From Planctomycetota bacterium (GTDB lineage: Bacteria; Planctomycetota; GCA-002687715; CAIWVZ01), in the NCBI GenBank assembly GCA_044222185.1, contig JBGANV010000004.1, forward strand, positions 128,001 through 192,000: a stretch of DNA of 64,000 nt. The letters run 5' to 3'. Each line of letters opens with the position of its first letter. Position 1 is the stretch's first letter. Below, piece by piece: positions 22,373 to 38,947 of this stretch. The position numbers and the translations under genes were made by a program. The notes below the pieces were generated by a model. It worked only from the letters and a program-made list of their open reading frames with translations, had not been told where the DNA came from and searched no databases.

Positions 22373-25300
22373 GTGACCGCGTCAGCCGGAACCAAGCGTG
22401 AGATCGGACGAACACACGTGACGGAGGCGGCTCTGTTCCAAGACGACGAGGCGTTCCTCGACGGCATCCTCGACGAGGCGTTGGAGCGCCTCGCAGCGGG
22501 GTCCGACGTCTCCGTCGATGACCTGATCGCCGGCCGATTCCACCTCCGCGGCCACGTTGCCCAAGTGCTCGCGATGGCGCAGGCCGTTGCCGTGCGCCAC
22601 GCACCGACGACGGCGACCGTCACCGGGTACGACGTCATCCGAGTCGTTGGCGAGGGCGCCATGGGCATCGTCTACGAGGCGCGGCATCTCGCCCTCGATC
22701 GACACGTTGCCCTCAAGGTCCTACCTCCCGCCGCAGCTCGATCGCGGTCGGCGCGGGAGCGTTTTCTTGCCGAGGCACGAGCCCTCGCGAGCCTGCGCCA
22801 CCCGAGCGTCGTGCAGATCTACGACGTGATCGATGAGGGGGCCGTGTGCGCTTACGCCATGGAGCTGGTCGATGGCTGGTCGCTCGCCGAGATTCTCAGA
22901 GCGGCCGAGGACTCCGTCCCGCTCGAAGACGTCTGGCGAGGTCTCGCCGCGGAGCCGCCACCGGGGCGGGGCGGTGACTCGATCATCACGTTCGTTTGCC
23001 GCGTCGGTGTCGCCGTGGCACGCGCGCTCGGCGAGGTTCATCGTGCGGGGCTCCTTCATCGCGACGTCAAGCCGTCGAACGTCTTGATCCGGCGCGACGG
23101 AACGGCGCTTCTCTCGGATTTCGGTCTGGTGCGCGACGTCGACGCGGCGTCGCGTACCGAGAGCGGGCAGTTCCTCGGAACGATCGCCTACGCCGCGCCC
23201 GAGCAGCTTCGCGGCAATGCGGCGGAGATCGGCCCTGCGACGGACGTGTACGCGCTCGGCGTCACCCTCTACCACGCGCTGACGCAGCGATTGCCGTTCC
23301 GCAGTGATTCTCCCATGAGCCAGCTCCGGGCGATCGAGTCTGGCGCGTTGACTCCAGCTCGCCGCGTCAACCCGAGGTTGCCGCGCGACCTCGAGACGGT
23401 CGTTGCGAAGGCGATGGAGCCCGACCCAGCGGCGCGCTACCGGTCGGGCGACGATCTCGCCGACGAGCTCGAGCGCGTCCTGCAGCTTCAACCCATTCGC
23501 GCTCGCCCTCCGGGGCTTGCTGCGCGGGCCCTGAAATTCTCCCGCCGGAACCGGCTGGTGCTCCTCGCCGCGGCCCTCGGGGGCATCGTCGTGATGGTCG
23601 TGGCGATGGCCTTGTGGTTGCGCGCCGAGGAGTTGCGCGCACGGCCTGCTCGGCTCGGCCAGCAGTTGGCGCTCGCCCGCACGGCGCTGCTCGACCCCAG
23701 GTTCGGGGAGCGCACGTTCGTCGCGGAACACGGTGGCGCTGACCCCGGCACGCTTCTCCTTCCCGTCGCGGCGGCCGATGAGGCGCTCCGCCACTACGAG
23801 GCCGCACTCGAGCTCGATCCGACGCAAATCGATGTGCGCCGCGAGCGGGACGTCGTCGCGTTCGCGCGTGCGAGGTTGGGGGCGGCGACTCCTCTGGCCG
23901 AGCGTGAGATCTCCGATGCCACGGGCGGCGATCGCCGGGCCGCCGGACTCCTCGCGTTTCTCGTCGGACGTGCCGATACGTGCACGCGCTTCTGGGACGG
24001 CTTGGACCTTGCTCCGAGTCCTGGCGACCCGCTCGTCGACCTCGCGCTGGGCGAGCTCTACCTGATCCGCGATCGTGGGCCGGCGGCCTATCTCCGGCTC
24101 TTCCGAGCCCATGAGGCGTTTCCCAAGGCGGGTTTCATCGCCGTGGATCTGGCCGACGCCGCACGGATGAGCGGGGACCTCTCGACGGCAGAGCGCCTGC
24201 TGGGCCGAGCGCGTCAGCTGATGCTTCAGGATCCCTACGACACGATCGTTCGCGTCGAGGCCGACTTGCGCGCGGCGCAGGGACGTCGTGCAGAGGCCCG
24301 GGAGCGATACGAGTCCATGGCCAAGAACCACCGGGCACCGACTTCGCGCTATCGGTACGCCCAGTTCCTCGAGCAGCAAGCGAACCCCGTCGACACCGAG
24401 CGTGCCATCGAGATCTACCGCCGGTTGGTCGAAGCTCATCCCGCCATCGCGACGTATCGCGCGGCACTCCGGCGTTCGGCAACGACGTGGTGGAATGGAC
24501 TGAGCTTCGACGGACGAAGCGACGTGGTCGCCCGTGGCTTGCTCGGGAGGTGCGAGGTGAGTCTCCCGGCCCTCGTGGCCAGCCTCTCGGCGGTCGACGA
24601 CGTCCACGCCAACGATTCTGCAGCAGTCCCGGTCGGCGAATCCTCTCTCGACTCCAGACACGTCGTTCCCATGGACATTTCATTCACGCTGGAGGTCTCG
24701 AGCATGACTCGTTCACACCTGGCAGGGCTCACGAAGCCCATGGCGCATGCGCTCGGCCGACTCGCCCTCTTGGCCGACTCCGTGCCAGCTGCGCCCATCA
24801 TCGAGCGCCTGATTCCTTTGGGGCGGCGGGGGCTGGCGTTTTGTGTCGTGTGCCTCGTCTCCGGGTTGATGGCGCCGCGCGCCATGCCACAGAACCAGGC
24901 GTGGTGCTACGAGTTCGAGGCCTGCCAGGGCGCGTCACTGCCGAATGCGCTCGATCCCACAAACATCGGACTGCTCAACAACACGGGTAGCTCGGCAGGC
25001 TCGCTCTACTCCGTTTCGAATGGGGCGCTGCATCAGACGACCATCGGTGCCAGCGCCGGCTGGGCCGAGTTCTATGGTGGGGACATCAGCTATTGGGTGC
25101 CCGCGATCAACCCACCCGCGACGTCCGTGAGTCTGAACTTTGCACAAGACTTCATCATGGAGGCGCGGATACGGGTTGCGACCCCGCCGGCCCCACCAAG
25201 CGGGACGCCGTACGGCGGTGTCTTCATGGAGTTCCTGGATGGTCAACGCCAGTACGCGCTGGGGATCGGGGCGTCCGGAATCACGGTGACGACGAGTGCC

Positions 25301-25957
25301 TACACGCTCTTCTCGCAGACGGTGCTCGGGAGCGGATGGAATCCGGCGACGTTCCATACCTACCGCTTGAGCAAGGTCGGTGGCCAAAGTGTCTACTCAG
25401 TGGCTATCGACGGAGTCGTCGTGCAGTCGTCCATCCCGGGCGCCGTGGTCGCGGCCAATCGATACTTCGGTTGGGGGAAGGGCGCACAGAGCACCAACCA
25501 GAACGCGCAGGCGGATTGGGATTTCGTCCGAGTCTTCAACGGACCCGGCATCATCGCGCTTTCGGCGCCTCCGTCCGTGGTCGTCAGTGGCCCCGGTTGC
25601 GGCGGCATCGGCTCTTGGCCCATGCTTGGTGCCAGCGCTCCCGTGCTCGGTGCTCCGATCGAGTTCGCGCAGAGCGGGGCGCCTCCGGGATCCGTGAGTT
25701 CCCTCGTAGCGAGCTTGACGCCAGCCGGCCCACTCAGCTTGCCCGGAGGCTGCGCCGTCTACGTCGACGTTGCGACGATGACCTCCCTCGGCAGCCCGTC
25801 GTCGAACGCCGCCGGAGCCTGGTCGATGTGCACGAGCCTCCCGTTTCTTCCCGGTCTCGCCGGGGGCGCTGTCGTCGTTCAGGCCGTGACGATCGACCCG
25901 TCGACGCCCGTGGGCTTTCAGTTGTCCAACGGCCTCAGCGTGACCCTCGGGTTCTGA
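22373..25957 (+). CDS. Ser/Thr protein kinase with a transmembrane segment and TPRs, fused to a secreted-type beta domain and the shared C-terminal domain
   Basis: GEGAMGIVY, VALK, HRDVKPSN, DFG, GTIAYAAPE; TPR-like helices; C-terminus QAVTIDP...LSNGL. Confidence 0.92.
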   Translation: MTASAGTKREIGRTHVTEAALFQDDEAFLDGILDEALERLAAGSDVSVDDLIAGRFHLRGHVAQVLAMAQAVAVRHAPTTATVTGYDVIRVVGEGAMGIVYEARHLALDRHVALKVLPPAAARSRSARERFLAEARALASLRHPSVVQIYDVIDEGAVCAYAMELVDGWSLAEILRAAEDSVPLEDVWRGLAAEPPPGRGGDSIITFVCRVGVAVARALGEVHRAGLLHRDVKPSNVLIRRDGTALLSDFGLVRDVDAASRTESGQFLGTIAYAAPEQLRGNAAEIGPATDVYALGVTLYHALTQRLPFRSDSPMSQLRAIESGALTPARRVNPRLPRDLETVVAKAMEPDPAARYRSGDDLADELERVLQLQPIRARPPGLAARALKFSRRNRLVLLAAALGGIVVMVVAMALWLRAEELRARPARLGQQLALARTALLDPRFGERTFVAEHGGADPGTLLLPVAAADEALRHYEAALELDPTQIDVRRERDVVAFARARLGAATPLAEREISDATGGDRRAAGLLAFLVGRADTCTRFWDGLDLAPSPGDPLVDLALGELYLIRDRGPAAYLRLFRAHEAFPKAGFIAVDLADAARMSGDLSTAERLLGRARQLMLQDPYDTIVRVEADLRAAQGRRAEARERYESMAKNHRAPTSRYRYAQFLEQQANPVDTERAIEIYRRLVEAHPAIATYRAALRRSATTWWNGLSFDGRSDVVARGLLGRCEVSLPALVASLSAVDDVHANDSAAVPVGESSLDSRHVVPMDISFTLEVSSMTRSHLAGLTKPMAHALGRLALLADSVPAAPIIERLIPLGRRGLAFCVVCLVSGLMAPRAMPQNQAWCYEFEACQGASLPNALDPTNIGLLNNTGSSAGSLYSVSNGALHQTTIGASAGWAEFYGGDISYWVPAINPPATSVSLNFAQDFIMEARIRVATPPAPPSGTPYGGVFMEFLDGQRQYALGIGASGITVTTSAYTLFSQTVLGSGWNPATFHTYRLSKVGGQSVYSVAIDGVVVQSSIPGAVVAANRYFGWGKGAQSTNQNAQADWDFVRVFNGPGIIALSAPPSVVVSGPGCGGIGSWPMLGASAPVLGAPIEFAQSGAPPGSVSSLVASLTPAGPLSLPGGCAVYVDVATMTSLGSPSSNAAGAWSMCTSLPFLPGLAGGAVVVQAVTIDPSTPVGFQLSNGLSVTLGF

Positions 25958-29017: not shown

Positions 29018-29249
29018 GGTCGTCGCTCCTCGATCGAGCGTCGGCCGCCGGCGTCCGGTGGAAGCCGGCCGGCCAGTTGCCCGACGCGTCGTGTGACTCC
29101 GGTTCTACCTGCCAAGCCTCGGGTGCACGGGCCCACGGCGGGTCGTTCCGCGTCCGCCCGTGGTTACCGTCACGGCGCGGATCCGGTTGGCGGGTCCGGC
29201 GATCGCCCATCGATGCCTGACGCGAGCCCTTCGGCCGGAGCCCCTACGC

Positions 29250-29855
29250 ATGAGCTTCTGGGACACCCGATACAGCGCCTCCGAGTTCGTGTACGGCAAG
29301 GAGCCGAACGACTTCCTGCGACAAAGCGCCCCGCAGATCCCAAAGGGACCCGTGCTCGCGCTCGCCGACGGCGACGGCCGCAACGGCGTATTCCTCGCGA
29401 AATGCGGCCATGACGTCCACGCGGTCGACCTCTCCGCCGTCGGACTGAAGAAGGCCAGCGCCTACGCCCTCGCCGAGGGAGTCCGCATCACGACCCAAGT
29501 CGCCGATCTCGCCGACTACGCCATCGAGCCCGCAGCCTGGAGCGGCATCGTCTCCATCTCGGCGCACCTCCCGGCCCCGGTTCGTCGCGCCTTGCATCGC
29601 CGGGTCGTGAGCGGCCTCCGTCCCGGCGGCCTCTTCATCCTGGAAGCGTTCACCCCGCGACAACTCGAGATCGGTGGCGTCGGCGGCCCCGGACCGGCGC
29701 ACCCTGACTTCTACATGTCCCTGGCGGATCTCCGCGTCGAACTCGCCGGCCTGGAGTTCATTCACGAGGAGGAGCTGGACCGAGACGTGAACGAGGGAGC
29801 CTTCCATCGAGGCCGGGCTGCCGTCGTGCAAGTGATCGCGCGGCGACCTGCCTGA
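29250..29855 (+). CDS. Class I SAM-dependent methyltransferase (TehB-like)
   Basis: FWDTRY...YGKEPNDFL; VLALADGDGRNGVFLA; LRPGG. Confidence 0.9.
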   Translation: MSFWDTRYSASEFVYGKEPNDFLRQSAPQIPKGPVLALADGDGRNGVFLAKCGHDVHAVDLSAVGLKKASAYALAEGVRITTQVADLADYAIEPAAWSGIVSISAHLPAPVRRALHRRVVSGLRPGGLFILEAFTPRQLEIGGVGGPGPAHPDFYMSLADLRVELAGLEFIHEEELDRDVNEGAFHRGRAAVVQVIARRPA

Positions 29856-30074: not shown

Positions 30075-31301
30075 ATGAGATCAATCCAATCGGCCTTGCG
30101 GATCGGGCTCTGGCTCACCGCGGCCGCCGGAGCGAGCTGGGCCCTGGGGTGTCCTCAGGGTGACGGCGCGACGAGCGGCAGCGCAACCTTCGAGCCACAC
30201 GCGGTCAGAACCTGGGACATCGTTCTCCCGGAGGAGCGCTTCCCCGATCTCGGTGCCGGCGTGGTGCTGCCTCACGACGGCGGCGATCGCTTCGCGGCGG
30301 TCGACGACGGCGGGCTCCTCAAGGTCGACATCAACGGCGACGGCACGCCGGAGGCGCGCGTCGAGGGGACGGCAGGCCACGTCACCTTCAGCGCCAAGAC
30401 GAAGGAAGGCGCGCCGTTGTCGTACTCGGTCCGCCTGACGCGCATGTCGGATGGTCCGTGGAAGTACGGCGTCGGCGGCGTCATGTCGGGCATGGTCGAC
30501 GGCGTCCAGGTGCGCCTCATCGACCAGAACCTGAATGGATCGTTCAACGACGTGGGCGAGGACGCCATCGTCGTCGGCCGCGAGAACGTGGCGAGCTATC
30601 TGTCGTCGGCGATCAACGTCAACGGCAAGCTGTACGCGATCGAGGTGGCTCGTGACGGTGCCAAGCTTTCGTGGAAGCCGTTCGAGGGCGCGACCGCCAA
30701 GGTCGACTTCACCGGAAGCTTCACGTGCAAGGCCCTGCTGCGCGCGGCGATCGTGAAGAGCGCTGACGGCAAGTTCTCCTTCAACGTCTCCAAGTCCGCC
30801 GGCGGAATGCTCGTTCCGGCCGGCGACTACACCCTGACGTCAGGGCAGCTCGCGCTTCACGACAGCGTCGCCACGTTGAAGCGCGGTCGCTCGAAGCCAT
30901 TCGCGGTGAAGGCCGGCGAGACGTTCACGCCCAAGTGGGGCGGGCCTGTGACGGCGGAGTTCGGCTTCTCCCGCATGGGGGACAAGCTCGTCTTCACGCC
31001 GTGGGACATCTGGTACTACGGCGAACTCGGCGAGGAGTACTCGAACTTCCTGCCGCTTGGCACGTCGCCCGAGTTCACGATCAAGAAGAAGGAGGGCGGC
31101 GAGACGATCGCCGTCGCCAAGTTCCCCGGGAACTGTTGAGGCTTCGGATTCACGCGGGTCGCCGTGAGCGTCCCCACCAACACCGAAGTCACGATCACGA
31201 TGAAGGCCGACAACTGGGCGTTCGGAACCGTCGAAGGGTCGCCGCGTGGCGCTGGATCCACCTCGGATCGCCCGCTCGGGACGGAGAAGCCTTCGCGCTG
31301 A
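30075..31301 (+). CDS. Secreted hypothetical protein, candidate selenoprotein (Cys-Sec at TGA 31137-31139); 30075-31139 if there is no read-through
   Basis: Signal peptide; Ca-binding-like loops DINGDG and DQNLNGSFND; KFPGNC-TGA-GFGFTRVAVSVPTNTEVTITMKADNWAFGTVEG; SECIS-like hairpin follows the TGA. Confidence 0.78.
31149..31168 (+). promoter_or_regulatory. Putative bacterial SECIS element
   Basis: UUCACG-CG-[GGU]-CG-(C bulge)-CGUGAG hairpin; the GGU loop begins 17 nt after the UGA. Confidence 0.65.
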
Positions 31302-31327
31302 TCGGACCGCCCGTTCGAGAATCGCTC

Positions 31328-31350
31328 CGCGGCGGAGTCGCTCCGCCGCG
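31328..31350 (+). other. Perfect 10-bp GC hairpin downstream of the extended ORF
   Basis: CGCGGCGGAG-TCG-CTCCGCCGCG. No U-tract, so not called a terminator. Confidence 0.6.
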
Positions 31351-31451
31351 CCGACGTACGGAACCGCGCACTCTTCAGTCCCATGCTCGCCGCTGACCGA
31401 CGTGCCGTCGGTCGTCCATCCGTGTCACCAACCTCACTCAACGTGCCCGCG

Positions 31452-33836
31452 ATGCGCGCGCTTCGCTCCGGGCCAGGGATCGCCTCGTCGCTCGCCGCGG
31501 CGTTCCTCCTGGCCATCGTGTTCGGGCTGCTCGCATGGTCCGCTCGCGCCCAGGAAGAGGACCCTCCTCCTCCGCCGGCGGATCAGTCGACCGAGGACGT
31601 CAACACGTCCAAGACGGGGATCGCGAAGATCCCCGTGCGGGTCGTCAACGGCCGCCTCGTCGTCAACTGCCAGCTCGCCGCGCGTCGCCGCGTCCCGGTG
31701 AATCTGTTCATCGACCTGGAGGCGCCCGTGGGGCTGCTCCTCCACAACCGGGCCGCATCCGGCATCGTCGCCGAAGAGGACGACGGCACGCCGAACGTGA
31801 TCACGATCAACCTGCCGGACTTGAACATGAAGGTCCCGCAGCGTGAGGTCGGCGAAGAAGAACCCTTCGAGCGATTCACCAAGTGGTACTCGAAGGAGCT
31901 CGGGGAGCAGGCGGTCGTCGGAACGCTCGGCGCGAAGGTGCTGTCCCAGTACCACGTCGTCCTCGACCTCCGTCACGGGATGATGGAGCTGTCAGCGCCC
32001 CACGACCCCGATCCGAAGGCCGCCGAGCCGATCAAGGGTTCGTACGTGACGCCGGTGACGCTCGTGAACGACGTGGTTTGGGCGTCCGTCTCCTACGGCG
32101 CCGGCCGCCGTGGCGCGTTCGGCGTGGGAACCGCCAAGTATGACACCTGGATCGATGCGGGTATCTGCGACGAGCTGCACAAGCCCGCCGGGGACGTCGG
32201 CGAGGTCAAGTTCGGTCCGTTCGACCTCGCGAAGTTCGTCCCCTTCCGCCCCGAGGAGATCCGCCAGATACACCCCGACGGCGTCTTCGGCATGTCGGGT
32301 CTGAACCTCCTCCAGCACTTCCGCGTGGAGATCGATCGCGTCAATCGCGTCGCGCGCTGGACGAACACCGCGCCGCCGCGTTTCCCGAAAGCCGATCTGG
32401 CGTACTTCATCGCGCGGGCGAAACACGAGCCGGGTGCCATCGAGGGCTGGCTCGACGCCAACCAGAAGGAACGTCTCGCGCCCGAGGCGGCGGACCTGCT
32501 CGTCGACATGCGGCTCGATGCGCTTGCCGACGACGGCGCCATGCGCAAGGCGATGGACTGGGTGATGAAGACCCGACCCGAGGACCTTCAGACGACTGGC
32601 GCCCTCGAGCTCATGAAGAAGATGTTCCAGTCCGCGCGGCCCGACTACGTCCTCGCCGCGGCCACGCTCGGACTGAAGAACCCCCGCGCGGACCGGTATC
32701 CGGATTCCGTTCACAAGGTCCACGCGCGCATGGGGTCCGTACTTCTCGACCAGGGCAAGGGGCTCGAGGCCTGGCGGCATCTGCTTTCCGCGGCGTTCGG
32801 GATGCCCGACGATGGACCGCTGAACCTGGACCTCGCCCGGTACTACGAAGGCGAGAAGCGCTGGTTGCGGGCCTACTCGCGCTACGTGCAGGCGCTGCTC
32901 TCCGCCGACAGCGGCCCGCGTGCGATCGACGGGCTCGAGCGTGTCGGGCAGAAGCTCGACGAGCCGTTCTCCGTCGACGCCATCGAGAAGCTGATCGAAG
33001 GCAAGGTCGAGGGGTTCGGCGCCGCAGCTCGCTACAAGCCCGAATCCCGCCGATCCACGAAGAAGATCCCGCTCGTCGAGATCTTCACCAATGCCCACTG
33101 GATCGGGGAGAGCGGCATGGCTCTCGGAGCCGACGGCGTTCGGGATCACTTCGGCGACCACGCGATCCAGCTCGTCTACCACGTTGCGGAGGGTGAGCTG
33201 GAGCCCGAGCCTCTCGTCAACGCGGCGAGCGTCGCGGCGTTGGACGCGGCCCGTGAACGCAACGAATCCATGGACGCGTTGGCCGGGTTCGTGGATGGAG
33301 TGGTCCCCATCCCGCCGGGCGCCCCCGCGCGGTTCAAGGCGAAGGTGTTCGACGCCTACAAGAGCGCCGTGATGTCGCGCATCGACCTGCCGACCGACTA
33401 CACGATCGAGCTCACGGGTGAAGCCAACGCGCGCGGACTCACGGGGAGGGTCGTCGTCCGCGGCGAGCAGCGGCCCGACGTCCACCTGGAGATCCTCCTC
33501 GTGGAGCGGGGCGTGCTCTTCCCGGGGAAGAGCAAGGTCGTCATCCAGCGCAACGTCGTGCGCGCCCACCTGCTCGGCGATGGCGAAGGCGAGCCGCTCG
33601 CGATCAAGCAGGGGACCATGACCGTTCCATTCTCCGCCGTGTTCGCCGACGTCCAGAAAGCCAACGCCGACTTCCTCGAAGCGCAAGAAAAGGCGGGCAA
33701 GGCGAGGACGCCGCGCTCGCCGGTGAGGATCGACCCGCGGCAGGCAACGATCGTCGCGCTCGTGCGTAACGCGGGGAGCGGCGAGGTCTACCAGGCGGCG
33801 AAGCTCGTCCCCACGTTCAAAGAGGATGCGAAGTGA
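31452..33836 (+). CDS. Secreted protein: tandem degenerate retropepsin-like domains, TPRs, and an Omp28/DUF1223-like thioredoxin-fold domain
   Basis: FIDLEA...GTLGAKVLSQYHVVLD and GMSGLNLLQHFRVEID; TPR helices; LVEIFT...LVYH...FVDG...RNVVR. Confidence 0.75.
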   Translation: MRALRSGPGIASSLAAAFLLAIVFGLLAWSARAQEEDPPPPPADQSTEDVNTSKTGIAKIPVRVVNGRLVVNCQLAARRRVPVNLFIDLEAPVGLLLHNRAASGIVAEEDDGTPNVITINLPDLNMKVPQREVGEEEPFERFTKWYSKELGEQAVVGTLGAKVLSQYHVVLDLRHGMMELSAPHDPDPKAAEPIKGSYVTPVTLVNDVVWASVSYGAGRRGAFGVGTAKYDTWIDAGICDELHKPAGDVGEVKFGPFDLAKFVPFRPEEIRQIHPDGVFGMSGLNLLQHFRVEIDRVNRVARWTNTAPPRFPKADLAYFIARAKHEPGAIEGWLDANQKERLAPEAADLLVDMRLDALADDGAMRKAMDWVMKTRPEDLQTTGALELMKKMFQSARPDYVLAAATLGLKNPRADRYPDSVHKVHARMGSVLLDQGKGLEAWRHLLSAAFGMPDDGPLNLDLARYYEGEKRWLRAYSRYVQALLSADSGPRAIDGLERVGQKLDEPFSVDAIEKLIEGKVEGFGAAARYKPESRRSTKKIPLVEIFTNAHWIGESGMALGADGVRDHFGDHAIQLVYHVAEGELEPEPLVNAASVAALDAARERNESMDALAGFVDGVVPIPPGAPARFKAKVFDAYKSAVMSRIDLPTDYTIELTGEANARGLTGRVVVRGEQRPDVHLEILLVERGVLFPGKSKVVIQRNVVRAHLLGDGEGEPLAIKQGTMTVPFSAVFADVQKANADFLEAQEKAGKARTPRSPVRIDPRQATIVALVRNAGSGEVYQAAKLVPTFKEDAK

Positions 33837-35337
33837 GCGGAGGTCCGGGCGATCGTCGAGGAGAGTTCGAGCGCGTCGGCGAACGCGCGTCGCGCGAGAT
33901 CCTTCGTCATGAGGTGTGGGCTGCAGCGCTGAGAGCCATCCGCGTGTCGAGCCCTTGGGTCGTCGTCGGGCCCGCCGTCGCTCTGCTCGTGCACGCGGGC
34001 GAACGCCTCGTCGGCGCGGGACAATTCGCCGTCCCGCTCGAGGTGATGATCGGCTCTGCGGTGTTGCCGTCGCTGCTGTTTGCAGGCATCGCCGTCGCCA
34101 CGCACCTCATGCGCAGCGCCGACCCGATCTCCGGCCTCGAGATTCTCGACCACGAACTTCGTGCCGCTGACCGCATGCGGACGGCGCATGACTTCCTCGG
34201 ACATCGCGACCTGACACCGTTCGAAGCTGCCGCAGTCGAGGACGGTGAAGCGATGATCGAACGCGCGCGGGCGCACGCGCTCGCTCGATCGGCGGCGGGG
34301 GAGTGGGACCTCCGCGTGGTGGCATTCTGGGCGCTGGCCGCGCTCCTCGTCGTGTTCGGCATGAGCACGGCGCCGCGCGGTGAACGCCCGGAGCCGCGAC
34401 CGACGGTCGGGGGCGGCGGCACGAAGGTCGCCGAGGCGTCCTCGCCGCGAGCCGACTCCCGCAAGGTCCCCGCGCCCGACAAGTCGACGGAGGTCGCTCG
34501 CGACGCGCGCACCGATCGCAAGTCGGAGGCCGCGACCCGACCGGCTGCGACGAGTCGTCCCACGAACCCCGAGCCCGAGCTCGCCGAACGGAAGAGCTCC
34601 GGAAAGACGGGCGACGGGAAGTCGTCCGCGGCCGCGACGCCCGCCAATCAATCGACGCAGAGCCAGGGGTTCCCGTCGTCCCCCAGCGAGACGAACGACA
34701 AACCGACGCCGACGAAAACCGTGGCGAAAGCTCCCAAGCCGAAACCACCGCCGAAGCCCGGCGACCCGCCGAAGAAGAAGGTGGACGAGCCATCCGGCTC
34801 GACGGCCGGCCGCGGCGTCGGAAGCGGCGCCAGCAAGAACCCGGGCGCCACCGAATGGGCGAGCAAGGATCAGGTCACGGACGACCGCGAGGATCCGCCC
34901 GAGGACGAAGTGGACGTCGACGAGGAGATGGACGAGTCGGAGAACCGGGGCGGCGTCCAGCCGAGCTTGCGCGATCGTCGTCCAGCGGTGAATCGCGACC
35001 TCACCATCGGGTTCGGAAACCGTCCCAGTCCCGACGCCAACGGTCGCGGTGGCCCGTCGCAGGAACAGAAGAAGTCCCGCGGCGTCGCGTCACTCGTGCT
35101 CGGCGTCCCCATCCCCGATCACGTCAAAGGCAAACCTGGTCCCGGTAGGACCAAGATCACGCAGGAGCGGGTCGAGCCGCGTCCCGAAGACGCCGCGCCC
35201 GCCGATGCTCTCGCCCGCGCGCCGCGCGCGGGGAAGTCCGGTCAGCTCGCGCACCCGGACCTCGCGCCGTGGATGCGCGAGGTCGTCCGTCGGTTCTTCG
35301 TCTCGCAACGTCAGCTCACCAAGGAGCAGGAACGTCC

Positions 35338-35341
<4 letters not shown>
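33833..35341 (+). CDS. Membrane protein with a low-complexity Pro/Ser/Lys-rich tail (MoxR operon accessory)
   Basis: Three hydrophobic segments; LD..L...DRMRTA; C-terminal REVVRRFF; GTGA and ATGA overlaps with its neighbours. Confidence 0.8.
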
Positions 35342-36366
<1,025 letters not shown>

Positions 36367-36380
36367 GCCTGGCGACTCCA

Positions 36381-37283
36381 TTGAACGCAGCCCGAACGAT
36401 CTCGCGCGACGATCTCTGCGACCCCGCGTTCCTCGCGGCGTTGCAGAACCTCCAACTCGTCGCCCGCCGCGTGGCTCCCCGCGGACGCTTCGCCGAGCAG
36501 CGCTCGCGCGCCATCGGCGGCGGCATCGAGTTCAAGGACTTCCGCCCCTACGCGCCGGGCGACGACCTGCGCGGCGTCGACTGGAACATCTACCGGCGAC
36601 TTGGCCGCGTGTTCCTGCGGCTGTTCGAGGAGACGGAGGACCTTCCCCTCTATCTCTTGCCCGACGTCTCCGAGAGCGCGTGGTTCGAGACCCCGCCGCG
36701 TGCGCTCGCTGGGTTGCGGTGCGCGCTCGGCCTCGCCTCGGTGAGTCTGGGGCAACACGACCGCGTCGGCGTCTTCCCGTTCGCGGACGATCTGGCGACG
36801 CTCATCCGGCCACAGGCCGGGAAGGGGCGCATCCTCGACATCGCACGCCGCGTGGCGGAGGTAAAGCCCGGCGGAGCGACCGATCTCCCGAAGGCGCTCG
36901 ATCGATTTGCGGCGCTCGGGCTCCGCGAGGGCCTCGTTTGCGTGATCTCCGACTTCTTCGACCCGCAGGGGATCGACGCCATCGTCGAGTCACTCATGCG
37001 CGTTCGCCATCGCCTGTTGCTCGTGCAGCTCTTCCGCAAGAGCGATGCCGAGCCGGTCGCGGGCGGTGACGTTCGCATGGTCGATTGCGAGTCGGGGGCG
37101 ATCGTCGACGTTTCGGTGACGCCCACCGTCGTCGAGCGCTACCGCGCTGCCGTGGCGCGATTCCAGGAGAAGCTCGTCACGTTCTCCCGTGCGCGAGGCG
37201 TGGGGCTCCTGCGCCTGGACGTGGAAGTCGACGTGCTCCACCAGCTCTCCGTCCTGTTCGAGAGCGGGAGGCTCGTCGTATGA
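36381..37283 (+). CDS. DUF58 domain protein
   Basis: EFKDFRPYAPGDDLRGVDWN; DVSES; ISDF. Confidence 0.93.
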   Translation: MNAARTISRDDLCDPAFLAALQNLQLVARRVAPRGRFAEQRSRAIGGGIEFKDFRPYAPGDDLRGVDWNIYRRLGRVFLRLFEETEDLPLYLLPDVSESAWFETPPRALAGLRCALGLASVSLGQHDRVGVFPFADDLATLIRPQAGKGRILDIARRVAEVKPGGATDLPKALDRFAALGLREGLVCVISDFFDPQGIDAIVESLMRVRHRLLLVQLFRKSDAEPVAGGDVRMVDCESGAIVDVSVTPTVVERYRAAVARFQEKLVTFSRARGVGLLRLDVEVDVLHQLSVLFESGRLVV

Positions 37284-38947
37284 CTTTCGGGCTCATGCCC
37301 CTCTGGGCGGTGTTCGCCGGGACGGCCGTTCTGGCCGGCCTCTTGTTCCTGCTCCAACGACTGCGCGTGCGCTACCAGGAGCGCCGCGTCGTCACGACGA
37401 TCTTCTGGAAGGAGGCCGTCGAGGAGGCGCAGGCGCGCGTGCTCGTCAAGCGCTTCCGCCATCCCTGGGCGTACGCCCTCATCCTCGCGATCGCCGCGGC
37501 GATCTGGCTGTCGGCCGGGGCACCGGAACTCGACGCGAGTCACGAACGCACCACCGTTCTCGTTCTCGCCAACGCGATGGCACCGCAGGGTCCCCGCGCG
37601 CGGCTCGCTCACGACGCCGTCATCGAGAGACTCGCCAGCCTTCCCCGCGATCGCGCGCGCGTCGTCGCCGCCGCGGGGGGCCGGGTCAAGACCCTGCTCG
37701 ACTTCGGCGAGGAGATCCCGCTCCTGGACCGCCGACTGGCGGCAACGACGAAGGAGCCGGCGGCTTCGTCCGTGCGGGATGCGGTCCGGGACGCACTCCT
37801 CTCCGCCGATCCGACGCATCCCGTCGACGTGCTCGTCTTCGGCGACGACCCGTTCGAGGCCTCGACGGTCTCGGTGCCGCCCGCATTCGCAACGGTGCGC
37901 CGCGTGCCGCTCGCTGGCGCGGCGATCGCCGATGGTGGCGTGACCGCGCTCGGCGTTGGCGAGGCTCGATCGGGCGCCTGGTCGAAGGTCGACGTCGTCG
38001 CGCACCTGCAGGGCACGGACGCGGCGGCCTGCCGCGTGCTGCTCGACGGCAAGCCGCTGGGCGAGGCTCGCATCGAAGCTGACGGTGGGGGTGTGCGTAT
38101 CGCCGTGCCTGACGTGGAGGCCCGCGGCGGCGTGCTCGAAGTGCGTCGCGAAGGCGCACCCGATGCGGTGCCGGCGAACGACTCGGTGCGCATTCGCCTG
38201 CCCGATCGCCCGCGCATCCACGTCGCGGTCGCGCCTTCCGTCCCGGCCGTCGTCAAGGCGGCGCTCGTCGCCGACGAGTCCGTGCTCGTCACGGACGATG
38301 CTCCGGCCGTCCGCGTGCGAGCGGCGGGCGACTCGTTCGGCGGTGCGGGTCCGGCGTTGGAGCTCGTTCCGGCGGTCAATCAGGACGCGGCGTTCCGGGT
38401 CCAGGTGACGGGCGATTCGGACGCCGATGCGGAACTCCGCCACGCGTTCGACGAACTGGGCCTGGGCGAGATCGACGGGACGTCACTCGCGGATCAAGCC
38501 CGTCGCCCCGTGACCGTCGATCTCGTCCGCGGACCGACGCCCATGGTTTCGATCTGGTCCGAGCTCGTGGGCGACGGATTCGACTTCACCCAGTCGCGAG
38601 CCTTTCCCCTGTTCCTCTCGCGCGCGGTGCGCATGCTGGCGGGGCAGCCGCGGCTTCGGGAGACTGCGGCCGCGGGTGACGTCATCGTCGAGCCCTGGAC
38701 GAACCCCCAGGGGCGCAGGATCGATCCGCTTCGAGGCGTCGCCCACATCCCGAGCGTCGGTGAGTACGCCGACGCTGGCGGGCGGCCGTTCACGGCGTCG
38801 CTCGTCGGAGTGCAGGAACCCACGGCGGCTGCTCCGCTGACGCAGAACGGAACGTCGAGCGTGTCGCTCTCGACGTGGATCGCGGCCTTCGCGATCCTCC
38901 TTCTCGTGGCCGAGTGGAACCTGCTCCGGAAGGGACGGATTCCGTGA
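37280..38947 (+). CDS. BatA-domain / degenerate VWA membrane protein
   Basis: N-terminal BatA-like LLQRLRVRYQERRVVTTIFW; AFPLFL; C-terminal transmembrane segment LLLVAEW. Confidence 0.85.
   Translation: MTFGLMPLWAVFAGTAVLAGLLFLLQRLRVRYQERRVVTTIFWKEAVEEAQARVLVKRFRHPWAYALILAIAAAIWLSAGAPELDASHERTTVLVLANAMAPQGPRARLAHDAVIERLASLPRDRARVVAAAGGRVKTLLDFGEEIPLLDRRLAATTKEPAASSVRDAVRDALLSADPTHPVDVLVFGDDPFEASTVSVPPAFATVRRVPLAGAAIADGGVTALGVGEARSGAWSKVDVVAHLQGTDAAACRVLLDGKPLGEARIEADGGGVRIAVPDVEARGGVLEVRREGAPDAVPANDSVRIRLPDRPRIHVAVAPSVPAVVKAALVADESVLVTDDAPAVRVRAAGDSFGGAGPALELVPAVNQDAAFRVQVTGDSDADAELRHAFDELGLGEIDGTSLADQARRPVTVDLVRGPTPMVSIWSELVGDGFDFTQSRAFPLFLSRAVRMLAGQPRLRETAAAGDVIVEPWTNPQGRRIDPLRGVAHIPSVGEYADAGGRPFTASLVGVQEPTAAAPLTQNGTSSVSLSTWIAAFAILLLVAEWNLLRKGRIP

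Follow-up and report, generated by a model that had tools for sequence, protein, structure and literature searches.

A probable exported selenoprotein of an unnamed family at the head of a MoxR/Bat-like operon in Planctomycetota

An interrupted gene and its surroundings

The window, a 64,000-nt stretch of planctomycete DNA, contains an open reading frame called from an ATG at position 30075 to position 31139, where it ends in the residues KFPGNC followed by a TGA (31137–31139). The same frame then stays open for 53 codons (31140–31298, starting GFGFTRVAVSVPTNTEVTITMKADNWAFGTVEG) up to a second TGA. The original prediction interpreted the whole as a new secreted selenoprotein of an unrecognised family, in which the internal TGA encodes selenocysteine (Sec), and on checking, its coordinates for both the called frame and the open extension were borne out. 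The features of the locus are listed in Table 1.

Table 1. Positions in the window of the candidate selenoprotein gene, its elements, and the genes downstream.
Feature	Position	Strand	Description
Full candidate selenoprotein gene	30075–31301	+	408 residues, predicted Sec = residue 355; true stop TGA 31299–31301; homologs align past the internal TGA to about residue 393–408
Probable signal peptide (MRSIQSALRIGLWLTAAAGASWALGC...)	30075–30152	+	Predicted from the hydrophobic N-terminus; A-x-A/Q-type ends in homologs
Putative Cys-Sec dyad	31134–31139	+	TGT TGA = C354-U355
SECIS-like hairpin	31156–31174	+	GGG-U-CGC / loop CGUGA / GCG-U-CCC; −9.4 kcal/mol; covariation on 51 Sec loci
Perfect 10-bp GC hairpin, 3-nt loop (CGCGGCGGAG-TCG-CTCCGCCGCG)	31328–31350	+	27 nt past the true stop; z −1.90; 6/200 shuffles fold as well
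Partner gene, 817-aa ORF	31383–33836	+	No Pfam family; signal-like N-terminus, one invariant Cys, several invariant His
502-aa ORF	33833–35341	+	Hydrophobic (probably membrane-spanning) segments, long Pro/Lys-rich linker; C-terminal ~180 aa conserved
MoxR-type AAA+ ATPase	35269–36366	+	AAA_3, 1.9e-60; kept in 10/10 long loci
DUF58 protein	36381–37283	+	2.3e-33; weak VWA_2
BatA-like membrane protein	37085–38947	+	Sub-threshold matches only: VWA_2 E 0.18, BatA N-terminal E 2.9

Taken by itself, the 53-codon extension is within chance: base composition gives such an extension a 31% chance, and one of this length follows 48% of 75 long frames in this 68%-GC window. The fold around the UGA is also within chance by itself, a 101-nt segment folding no better than shuffles (z −0.57). 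What raises the observation above chance is the in-frame GC3 periodicity past the TGA and, above all, the comparative evidence given below. GC3 in the extension is 0.83 in frame compared with 0.55–0.62 at the other two positions (0.89 in the upstream ORF).

As to secretion, signal-like N-terminal sequences are present, and these are the sole basis on which the protein looks exported. Downstream of the true stop, the anticipated hairpin at 31328–31350 is indeed perfect; no T-run follows it, and it may serve to terminate or attenuate transcription ahead of the next gene. Two RNA libraries, X16 and X18, contributed contigs that cover only 30075–30315 and 30459–30607, short of the TGA, and do not show transcription.

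The TGA column and the hairpin downstream of it

For comparison we used 56 homologous loci found in 45 Planctomycetota genomes. They fall into two subgroups, that of the window (34 loci) and a second one (22 loci) that includes the host genome's own paralog. The TGA stands exactly at the same column in 52 of the 56 loci and one residue earlier in another, giving 53 TGA-form loci in 43 genomes, and three loci (L043, L048, and L074) carry Cys; the column is common to all of the first 20 loci examined. The codon is embedded in the motif F-(P)G-x-C-U-G-x-G-[FM], and protein conservation starts at the very next codon (G-x-G-F-x-P-V) and extends about 40–55 residues beyond the TGA through the block G-x-G-F-x-P-V-A-V-S-V-P...W-A-F-G, with 36–61 residues between the UGA and the next stop. 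The proposed check, which looked for conservation past the TGA and for TGA or Cys at that column in homologs, thus gave a favourable answer. Two full-length homologs carry Cys-Cys (P0004, FPGNCCGFGF; P0006, FPGNCCSIGF). We also compared the 150 best-matching of 1756 library representatives: 94 end precisely at the column, 13 have Cys there, 5 have another residue, and the remaining 38 are fragments, in keeping with the expectation that standard gene callers would truncate the protein. The family is large and mis-annotated, most of its members being cut at the Sec codon, and these genes should be annotated by reading through the TGA.

Members of the family normally carry Sec and only rarely Cys, the reverse of most selenoprotein families. 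The residue pairs in the 56 loci are CU (41), SU (4), UU (3), TU (3), AU (1), UC (1), CC (2), and SC (1). The Cys-Sec dyad of the original prediction is accordingly the commonest state, with C in 41 of the 56 loci, but it is not invariant: 8 loci have S, T, or A as the neighbouring residue (S-U-U in two of these), and 3 have U. A Cys-Sec redox dyad is thus the common state of the family and not its defining one. Five relatives contain two adjacent UGA codons.

A stem-loop with a GGU loop had been predicted 17 nt after the UGA. The position was correct, since the hairpin begins at the 17th nt and 23 nt separate the UGA from the apical loop (alignment columns 4–26), but the loop was not: it reads CGUGA, which contains GU. 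On the 51 Sec loci, pairing occurs in 88.8% of cells, compared with 20.7–53.2% when the 3' partners are slid, and the covariation score was reached by 0 of 500 shuffles. Pair 25:33, which links a first codon position (Ala/Thr/Ser) with a synonymous third position, is GC in 31 loci, AU in 16, UA in 3, and CG in 1, and is never unpaired (0/51). In L075, the locus with Sec one residue earlier, a one-codon deletion preserves the distance from UGA to hairpin; in L064, a one-codon deletion leaves a UGA-to-loop spacing of 20 nt.

We compared the hairpin with Zhang and Gladyshev's bacterial SECIS model in the form given by PMC13188914 (Fig. 2 legend), which calls for an apical loop of 3–9 nt with G as either its first or its second nucleotide and usually G or U next, a distance of 16–37 nt from UGA to apical loop, an upper stem of 4–16 bp, and a minimum free energy of ≤ −7.5 kcal/mol. 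The loop, C-G-[U/G]-G-[A/C] in nearly all 51 loci, agrees with this model, as do the spacing and the energy of the window's hairpin; most loci lie between −7.2 and −17.7 kcal/mol, and in two Sec loci (L050 and L055) the lowest-energy fold differs from the SECIS-like hairpin. Like bacterial SECIS elements of the E. coli fdhF type, this is an in-coding hairpin just 3' of the UGA, with a small apical loop carrying G then U/G at positions 2–3, comparable spacing and energy and, in most members, a bulged or mismatched stem U. It differs from them in being unrelated in sequence to any Rfam family (a search of 31050–31400 at permissive E gave three chance-level matches only, none at the hairpin), in that SelB binding is here putative, and in the upper stem of the window's subgroup, which is interrupted by the U mismatch or bulge after only 3 bp (in the window itself, 3 bp, a U-U mismatch, and 3 bp), whereas the second subgroup has 6 continuous bp. 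The SECIS-like hairpin of the original prediction thus shows covariation and fits the published loop, spacing, and energy constraints. Part of its conservation could be protein-driven, because it overlaps conserved codons (P-V-A-V-S-V-P) and persists in two of the three Cys-form loci (L043 and L048).

The host genome encodes selA with an adjoining tRNA-Sec (74.7 bits), selB, and a Sec-type selD that has an in-frame TGA of its own, so that selA, selB, selC, and selD, which the original prediction had proposed to look for, are all present, each matched above its curated cut-off. Of 401 genomes sampled from the phylum, 290 have SelA, and a cross-check by hand placed all 43 genomes with the TGA form among these 290. 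With Sec so common in the family and SelA so widespread, the family may be one reason for the retention of Sec in the phylum. Another study's sequencing run (X2) yielded a contig over 30313–31190 with no difference listed at 31137–31139; neither TGC nor TGG, which would have counted against Sec, stands in this independent contig. The TGA/Cys column, the hairpin covariation, the sel genes, and the X2 contig together support the interpretation of the locus as a new exported selenoprotein, and judging from these sequences the gene is very probably decoded with Sec.

An unnamed family and the MoxR/Bat-like operon of one subgroup

The selenoprotein matched no family in Pfam or NCBIfam (release 20) at E values up to 1. 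A list of 119 prokaryotic selenoprotein families compiled in May 2026 is available (PMC13188914, Table 1), and among these none of the Pfam- or NCBIfam-defined entries matched, the CDD- and PANTHER-defined entries lying outside the comparison. The same inventory includes several selenoproteins with a CU motif, namely SaoC, SaoL, HgcA, MbdU, KCU-star/DUF466, and the Csac_0668 family. The window's protein shares with these a Cys-Sec dyad in a bacterial protein but has another size and another context. NCBIfam models define five of the six, and none of these five matched at E up to 1; the Csac_0668 family is defined by a CDD model. A profile search returned 220 clusters (50% identity) at E ≤ 1e-30 and 1756 at E ≤ 1e-3. 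The selenoprotein is either the founder or a member of a large family to which neither Pfam nor NCBIfam gives a name.

The named origins of family members (NCBI titles and Atlas taxa) are all Planctomycetota, most sampling having been within the phylum, and a related-locus search with the single protein gave four loci, all from Planctomycetota or Planctomycetaceae MAGs. We did not find a description of the family in the selenoprotein literature, including that on Planctomycetes/Planctomycetota, MoxR, and tandem UGA codons; supplementary lists might include a member (Table S2 of PMC12013277, and S9 Table of PMC4807772 on candidate selenoproteins of two planctomycetes). In the Atlas, the nearest clusters to homolog P0020 are unnamed Planctomycetota proteins. 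In rows 4–7 of its structure matches (TM 0.45–0.51), the proteins additionally contain AhpC-TSA, Redoxin, or Thioredoxin domains, which we note as a lead only.

Two distant relatives, P0153 and P0156, have an N-terminal zf-HC2 anti-sigma domain and a C-terminal match to the family profile (72–363 and 66–347, respectively). The resemblance to ECF anti-sigma factors with an extracytoplasmic sensor thus lies in the C-terminal region, which matches the profile from about position 70 to or just past the Sec column, whereas the window's protein has a probable signal peptide in place of zf-HC2. Other distant relatives of 760–780 and 474–497 aa had no Pfam domain among those fetched. Against PDB sequences, the family profile gave weak matches only, between its positions 297–380 and the V domains of antibody light chains (best E 4e-4); these hint at an Ig-like beta-sandwich for the C-terminal domain. 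Sub-threshold matches to FG-GAP_3 (6 of 50 members), EF-hand_5 (4 of 50), and FG-GAP (2 of 50) fit the D-x-D-G-D-G and D-Q-N-x-N-G loops and prove nothing.

In 32 of the 34 loci of the window's subgroup, the next gene downstream on that strand is the partner gene; the other two loci stop at contig ends. The partner's five invariant His residues are H45, H368, H371, H390, and H513, some of them within a D-R-Y-P-x-x-x-H-x-x-H motif. The 502-aa ORF that follows had no match in Pfam or NCBIfam, and the real start of the BatA-like gene is probably a Met near 37280. In all 10 long loci of the subgroup, which span nine family codes, the genes for the selenoprotein, the 817-aa protein, the 502-aa protein, MoxR, DUF58, and a 620-aa BatA-like protein occur together on one strand and in that order. 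The second subgroup (22 of the 56 loci) lacks this operon, and in the two of its loci that were scanned we found no conserved neighbour of known function.

The adjacent MoxR (AAA_3) and DUF58 genes are those of Bat (Bacteroides aerotolerance) or MoxR-DUF58-vWA operons, and the likeness extends to a membrane protein with weak BatA/VWA signals and to exported proteins alongside. The window's operon differs in that BatB–E were not identified in it and in that the selenoprotein, 817-aa, and 502-aa genes have no counterpart named in the Bat literature consulted (PMC3557215). Proposed functions of the Bat proteins are the reduction of oxidised proteins in the periplasm and the export of reducing power (PMC3557215). 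They have no proven redox role, and their deletion in Leptospira biflexa left oxidative-stress survival unchanged (PMC3557215). We found no literature report of a selenoprotein in a Bat/MoxR-type operon. The selenoprotein is likely to be part of a MoxR/Bat-like module, and a selenol at the head of the operon would provide a chemical handle on what Bat/MoxR-vWA envelope systems do.

Decoding of the UGA and possible roles of the selenol

We consider it highly likely that 30075–31301 is one gene for a 408-residue exported protein, with the UGA at 31137–31139 read as Sec, and that it is the first gene of a MoxR/Bat-like operon in its subgroup. The coding-sequence hairpin at 31156–31174 (loop CGUGA, 17 nt downstream) would direct decoding of the UGA, presumably bound by host SelB carrying Sec-tRNA(Sec), and translation would then proceed through a conserved, beta-rich C-terminal domain (...G-x-G-F-x-P-V-A-V-S-V-P...N-W-A-F-G...) to the stop at 31299. 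The selenol would lie in a loop rich in Gly, in most cases next to a Cys that could join it in a selenenylsulfide; both the fold and the placement of this loop are guesswork. The 8 loci with S, T, or A in place of that Cys speak against such a vicinal bond being obligatory.

The redox centre of mammalian thioredoxin reductase is Gly-Cys-Sec-Gly. The present family likewise has a vicinal Cys-Sec flanked by Gly, literally G-C-U-G in the second subgroup and N/T/S-C-U-G in that of the window. The resemblance is at the level of the motif only: here the dyad is internal, about 40–55 residues from the C-terminus, the Cys is not invariant, the protein looks exported, and there is no Pfam match to a flavoprotein or pyridine-nucleotide disulfide oxidoreductase domain. 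Tentatively, we see in the Sec the reactive centre at which a Bat-like complex would perform a redox step outside the cytoplasm. No electron donor is evident, because the partner alignment has a single invariant Cys and lacks a thioredoxin motif. A more specific proposal, which we regard as doubtful, is that the protein would be a selenium-dependent reactive subunit of MoxR/DUF58/BatA-type envelope complexes, with the 817-aa partner and the AAA+/vWA machinery holding or servicing its Cys-Sec loop (Sec-Sec in some species) for extracytoplasmic redox or metal handling, and that the tandem UGAs of the five relatives would both be decoded via one SECIS hairpin. If true, decoding of two UGAs through one hairpin would be an unusual tandem Sec insertion in bacteria.

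MoxR-vWA pairs also serve metal centres of other enzymes, as in CoxD/E and NorQ/D. The Sec, with its neighbouring Cys or second Sec, might accordingly be a metal or metalloid ligand rather than a redox centre, with MoxR/DUF58/vWA loading or remodelling the site, a possibility that we rate as rather unlikely. The conservation of MoxR and DUF58 in the operon and the partner's invariant His residues would suit such a role, as would the variable neighbour (C, U, S, T, or A), since a single selenolate ligand would suffice; several CU-motif selenoproteins of the inventory are also named or predicted as metal-related (MbdU, SaoL, and HgcA; PMC13188914, Table 1). However, MoxR is cytoplasmic and the selenoprotein apparently exported, and no known metal-binding domain was found with Pfam or NCBIfam in any of the three uncharacterised proteins.

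It is very improbable that the UGA acts mainly as a stop, yielding a 354-residue product, with the downstream conservation reflecting rare read-through or a separate small protein. Gene callers do end at the UGA, extensions of such length are common in the GC-rich DNA of the window, and an internal GTG ORF spans 31164–31301. Conservation, however, begins at the codon right after the TGA, ahead of any start codon, and the Cys forms are single continuous proteins, for which reasons we rejected a separate small ORF. A plain stop would also be expected to drift among TGA, TAA, and TAG, as do the real stops of these genes (TGA in 17 and TAA or TAG in 3 of the first 20 loci), whereas TGA is kept in 53 of the 56 loci.

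Sequence alone does not reveal the inserted residue. That a suppressor or near-cognate tRNA places Trp, Cys, Arg, Gly, or another standard residue at the UGA we nevertheless hold to be scarcely credible. The genome has a complete Sec machinery, SelA occurs in all 43 host genomes, and the SECIS-type hairpin stands at a fixed distance. Where the codon is replaced, the residue is Cys in 3 of 3 loci and in 13 of the 18 representatives that cover the column among the best 150 of 1756. Moreover, TGA is a working stop in these genomes, since most of these genes also end in it. A sequencing or assembly error or a pseudogene, in favour of which nothing speaks except the in-frame stop itself, is refuted by the same codon in 53 loci of 43 genomes and by the independent contig from another study.

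The in-frame TGA and its column in homologs

The original prediction described a frame that stays open past the TGA with typical codon usage, a perfect hairpin beyond the second TGA and a stem-loop 17 nt past the UGA, and we recovered each of these features (see table), with a stem-loop that starts at the 17th nucleotide and a GC3 past the TGA of 0.83 in frame vs. 0.55-0.62 for the two remaining codon positions. The loop of this stem-loop, given earlier as GGU, is CGUGA. A 53-codon open run has a chance expectation of 31% from composition in this 68%-GC window and was found after 48% of 75 long frames within it, and the 101-nt fold around the TGA (z -0.57) was not better than shuffles. Since open runs are common and the fold is at shuffle level, the open frame and the stem-loop are not convincing alone.

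Coordinates of the selenoprotein gene, its neighbours and Sec-related genes (window positions unless a contig is named; G000 is the window's own genome)
Feature	Position	Strand	Remarks
Ser/Thr protein kinase ORF	22373-25957	+	1194 aa
SAM-methyltransferase ORF	29160-29855	+	231 aa; weak TehB-like match
Selenoprotein ORF	30075-31301	+	408 residues; ATG at 30075
Probable Sec codon (TGA)	31137-31139	+	residue 355; follows AKFPGNC
Outer helix around SECIS-like hairpin	31140-31191		GGCUUCGG paired with CCGAAGUC
Stem-loop past the UGA	31156-31174
Second TGA	31299-31301	+	ends 53-codon open run
Perfect hairpin	31328-31350		10 bp, 3-nt loop
817-aa ORF	31383-33836	+	first gene after selenoprotein
502-aa ORF		+	hydrophobic segments (probably membrane-spanning), Pro/Lys-rich linker
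MoxR AAA_3 ATPase		+	after 502-aa ORF
DUF58 protein		+	after MoxR
620-aa membrane protein		+	after DUF58; BatA and VWA signals sub-threshold
SelA			396.9 bits; window's genome
tRNA-Sec			74.7 bits; directly after SelA gene
SelB			330.4 bits; window's genome
SelD, Sec-type	G000:C14:427704-428624		outside window; one in-frame TGA of its own
Second copy (locus L072/L095)	G000:C13:52767-53894	-	contig 13

When we compared the read-through protein with 41 related genomes by six-frame search, strong matches crossed the TGA to about residue 393, each with an in-frame TGA. With TGA translated as U, all 20 aligned loci had it in one shared column, at and after which the motif F-(P)G-x-C-U-G-x-G-[FM]-x-P-V-[AT]-V-S-V-P was found. 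The real stops of these first 20 genes vary (17 TGA, three TAA/TAG). A phylum-wide set, built from 401 searched genomes and fetched regions, comprised 56 loci from 45 genomes; TGA was kept at the site in 53 and replaced by Cys in three, matching the expectation of conservation past the TGA with TGA or Cys in its column. The dyad, that is, Cys354-Sec355 and its counterparts, reads CU in 41 loci, SU in four (two being S-U-U), UU in three, TU in three, AU in one, UC in one, CC in two and SC in one. Two adjacent TGAs occur in five of the 56 loci. Each of these tandem-TGA relatives (U-U in L026, L059 and L073; S-U-U in L031 and L056) has only one hairpin, which keeps its usual spacing to one of the two TGAs.

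On a quick, unrooted tree of 67 rows, from which we claim no direction of Sec/Cys change, the Cys state requires at least four changes, three of which concern lone tips or pairs that sit within groups of Sec forms. The window's copy clusters with copies from other family codes (f25, f8) and not with its own order, which hints at old paralogy or transfer.

A word-indexed search of predicted proteins returned 21 matches, only two of which, P0004 (407 aa) and P0006 (397 aa), were long enough for the whole query. Among six matches inspected, these two continue through the site with Cys-Cys, and the other four stop at the dyad Cys or just short of it. Searching 1.84 billion representatives with a profile yielded 1756 proteins at E <= 1e-3 and 220 at E <= 1e-30. 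Among the best 150 of the 1756, 94 have their C-terminus exactly at the Sec column, bearing out the predicted truncation by gene callers, while 13 have Cys there, five divergent ones have other residues and 38 are fragments. The family is large, mostly cut at its Sec codon by gene callers, and Sec forms dominate it.

A covarying hairpin and the Sec machinery

We examined covariation in 51 Sec loci without indels, omitting L064 and L075 (indels) and the three Cys forms. Paired cells made up 88.8%, vs. 20.7-53.2% with the 3' partners slid, and the covariation score was matched by none of 500 shuffles. Pair 25:33 is GC in 31 loci, AU in 16, UA in three and CG in one, and never unpaired; the pair on either side of it is C-G in 50 of 51. 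To this pair an Ala/Thr/Ser codon contributes its first base, and a Ser/Arg codon two codons further along its synonymous third base, so the pairing is not explained by constraint on the protein alone. At the hairpin, the second subgroup, which is the other branch of the family, has different residues (E-Y-S-G-R-V-P), yet a perfect 6-bp stem with a CGGGA or CGGGC loop. In L075 (G134:C38), the order of the dyad is reversed from C-U to U-C, so that Sec comes one residue sooner, and the loss of one codon downstream restores the UGA-to-hairpin distance; a distance 3 nt shorter is tolerated in L064. As a caveat on hairpin conservation, the stem is still present in two of three Cys-form loci. In its loop, spacing and energy the hairpin agrees with the bacterial SECIS model as worded in the Fig. 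2 legend of PMC13188914; it agrees with the upper stem of at least 4 bp listed there only with a U mismatch allowed. Rfam contains nothing similar. Most other loci show no clear counterpart of the window's outer helix.

All four Sec genes named in the original prediction (selA, selB, selC and selD) were found in the window's genome (7.08 Mb, 16 contigs). SelA was present in 290 of 401 sampled phylum genomes, and Sec use appears to be very common in Planctomycetota. By hand cross-check, all 43 genomes with the TGA form are among the SelA-positive ones, a co-occurrence to which we attach no probability because kin are not independent. A change of the TGA to TGC or TGG was not seen: a contig from a DNA run of another study spans 30313-31190 and has nine differences, none listed at the TGA, in a table that does list, elsewhere, differences 40 letters from a contig end.

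The UGA is conserved and has Cys homologs, the hairpin covaries at a fixed distance, and the gene lies in an operon in a genome with Sec machinery. We consider it very likely that the gene truly encodes Sec. SelB would bind the hairpin, directing Sec insertion at the UGA. Since Sec decoding by bacterial SECIS is already known, the selenoprotein is not a new kind of system.

Protein family, operon and proposed role

The selenoprotein had no Pfam or NCBIfam (release 20) match at E <= 1 and so is not among the inventory families defined by those models in PMC13188914, a May 2026 review that lists 119 prokaryotic selenoprotein families, each under a Pfam, NCBIfam, CDD or PANTHER identifier. Relatives are annotated "hypothetical protein" in their sources; one record carries the name Planctomycetes bacterium, and four named MAG records and the Atlas clusters belong to Planctomycetota. 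The N-terminus is signal-like by sequence. Two acidic loops, D-x-D-G-D-G and I-D-Q-N-x-N-G...D-x-G-x-D-A, carry invariant Asp and give sub-threshold FG-GAP and EF-hand matches; the C-terminal stretch weakly resembles Ig V-light domains, with the dyad falling at VL G-S-G-S-G. The family alignment contains no conserved Cys besides the dyad. In the distant relatives P0153 and P0156 (613-621 aa), this module is preceded by an N-terminal zf-HC2 anti-sigma zinc finger, so it is also used as the extracytoplasmic part of signalling proteins.

In the window's subgroup (34 loci, delimited on the 67-row tree), the 817-aa gene lies directly 3' of the selenoprotein gene in 32 loci, the other two reaching contig ends, and the six-gene order is kept in 10 of 10 18-kb loci from nine family codes. 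In the second subgroup, the partner was found in none of 22 short loci, and none of the operon genes in any of 6 long loci. Alignment of the 817-aa partner revealed one invariant Cys (G-R-L-V-x-x-C) and five invariant His (in L-H-N, D-R-Y-P-x-x-x-H-x-x-H and A-W-x-H, and as residue 513 in the first sequence). Its match to an Omp28-related selenoprotein model was at chance level (E 0.048), and by eye its N-terminal half gives the impression of two degenerate retropepsin-like repeats.

According to PMC3557215, proposals for the role of Bat operons are the reduction of oxidised periplasmic proteins or the export of reducing power, and Bat deletion in Leptospira gave no oxidative-stress phenotype, the function being one that "remains elusive". 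Apparently no link of this family to MoxR/Bat systems has been published, none having come up in a literature search of main texts. The reading to which we commit is that the selenoprotein would be exported and its selenol would act as the reactive centre of a Bat-like complex outside the cytoplasm. The neighbouring Cys would, in most members, protect the selenol as a selenenylsulfide, by analogy to thioredoxin reductase, where such chemistry is known at the Gly-Cys-Sec-Gly terminus. The main functional rival is that Sec serves as a metal ligand rather than a redox centre, which would suit the replacement of the dyad Cys by S, T or A in some loci and the His-rich partner.

The kinase and methyltransferase ORFs upstream were not kept beside the selenoprotein in the loci compared. 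The second copy in the same genome belongs to the second subgroup (GGCUGGGF, 32-35% identity), lies outside any MoxR operon and adjoins a Na+/H+ exchanger gene, with a TGA and hairpin of its own.
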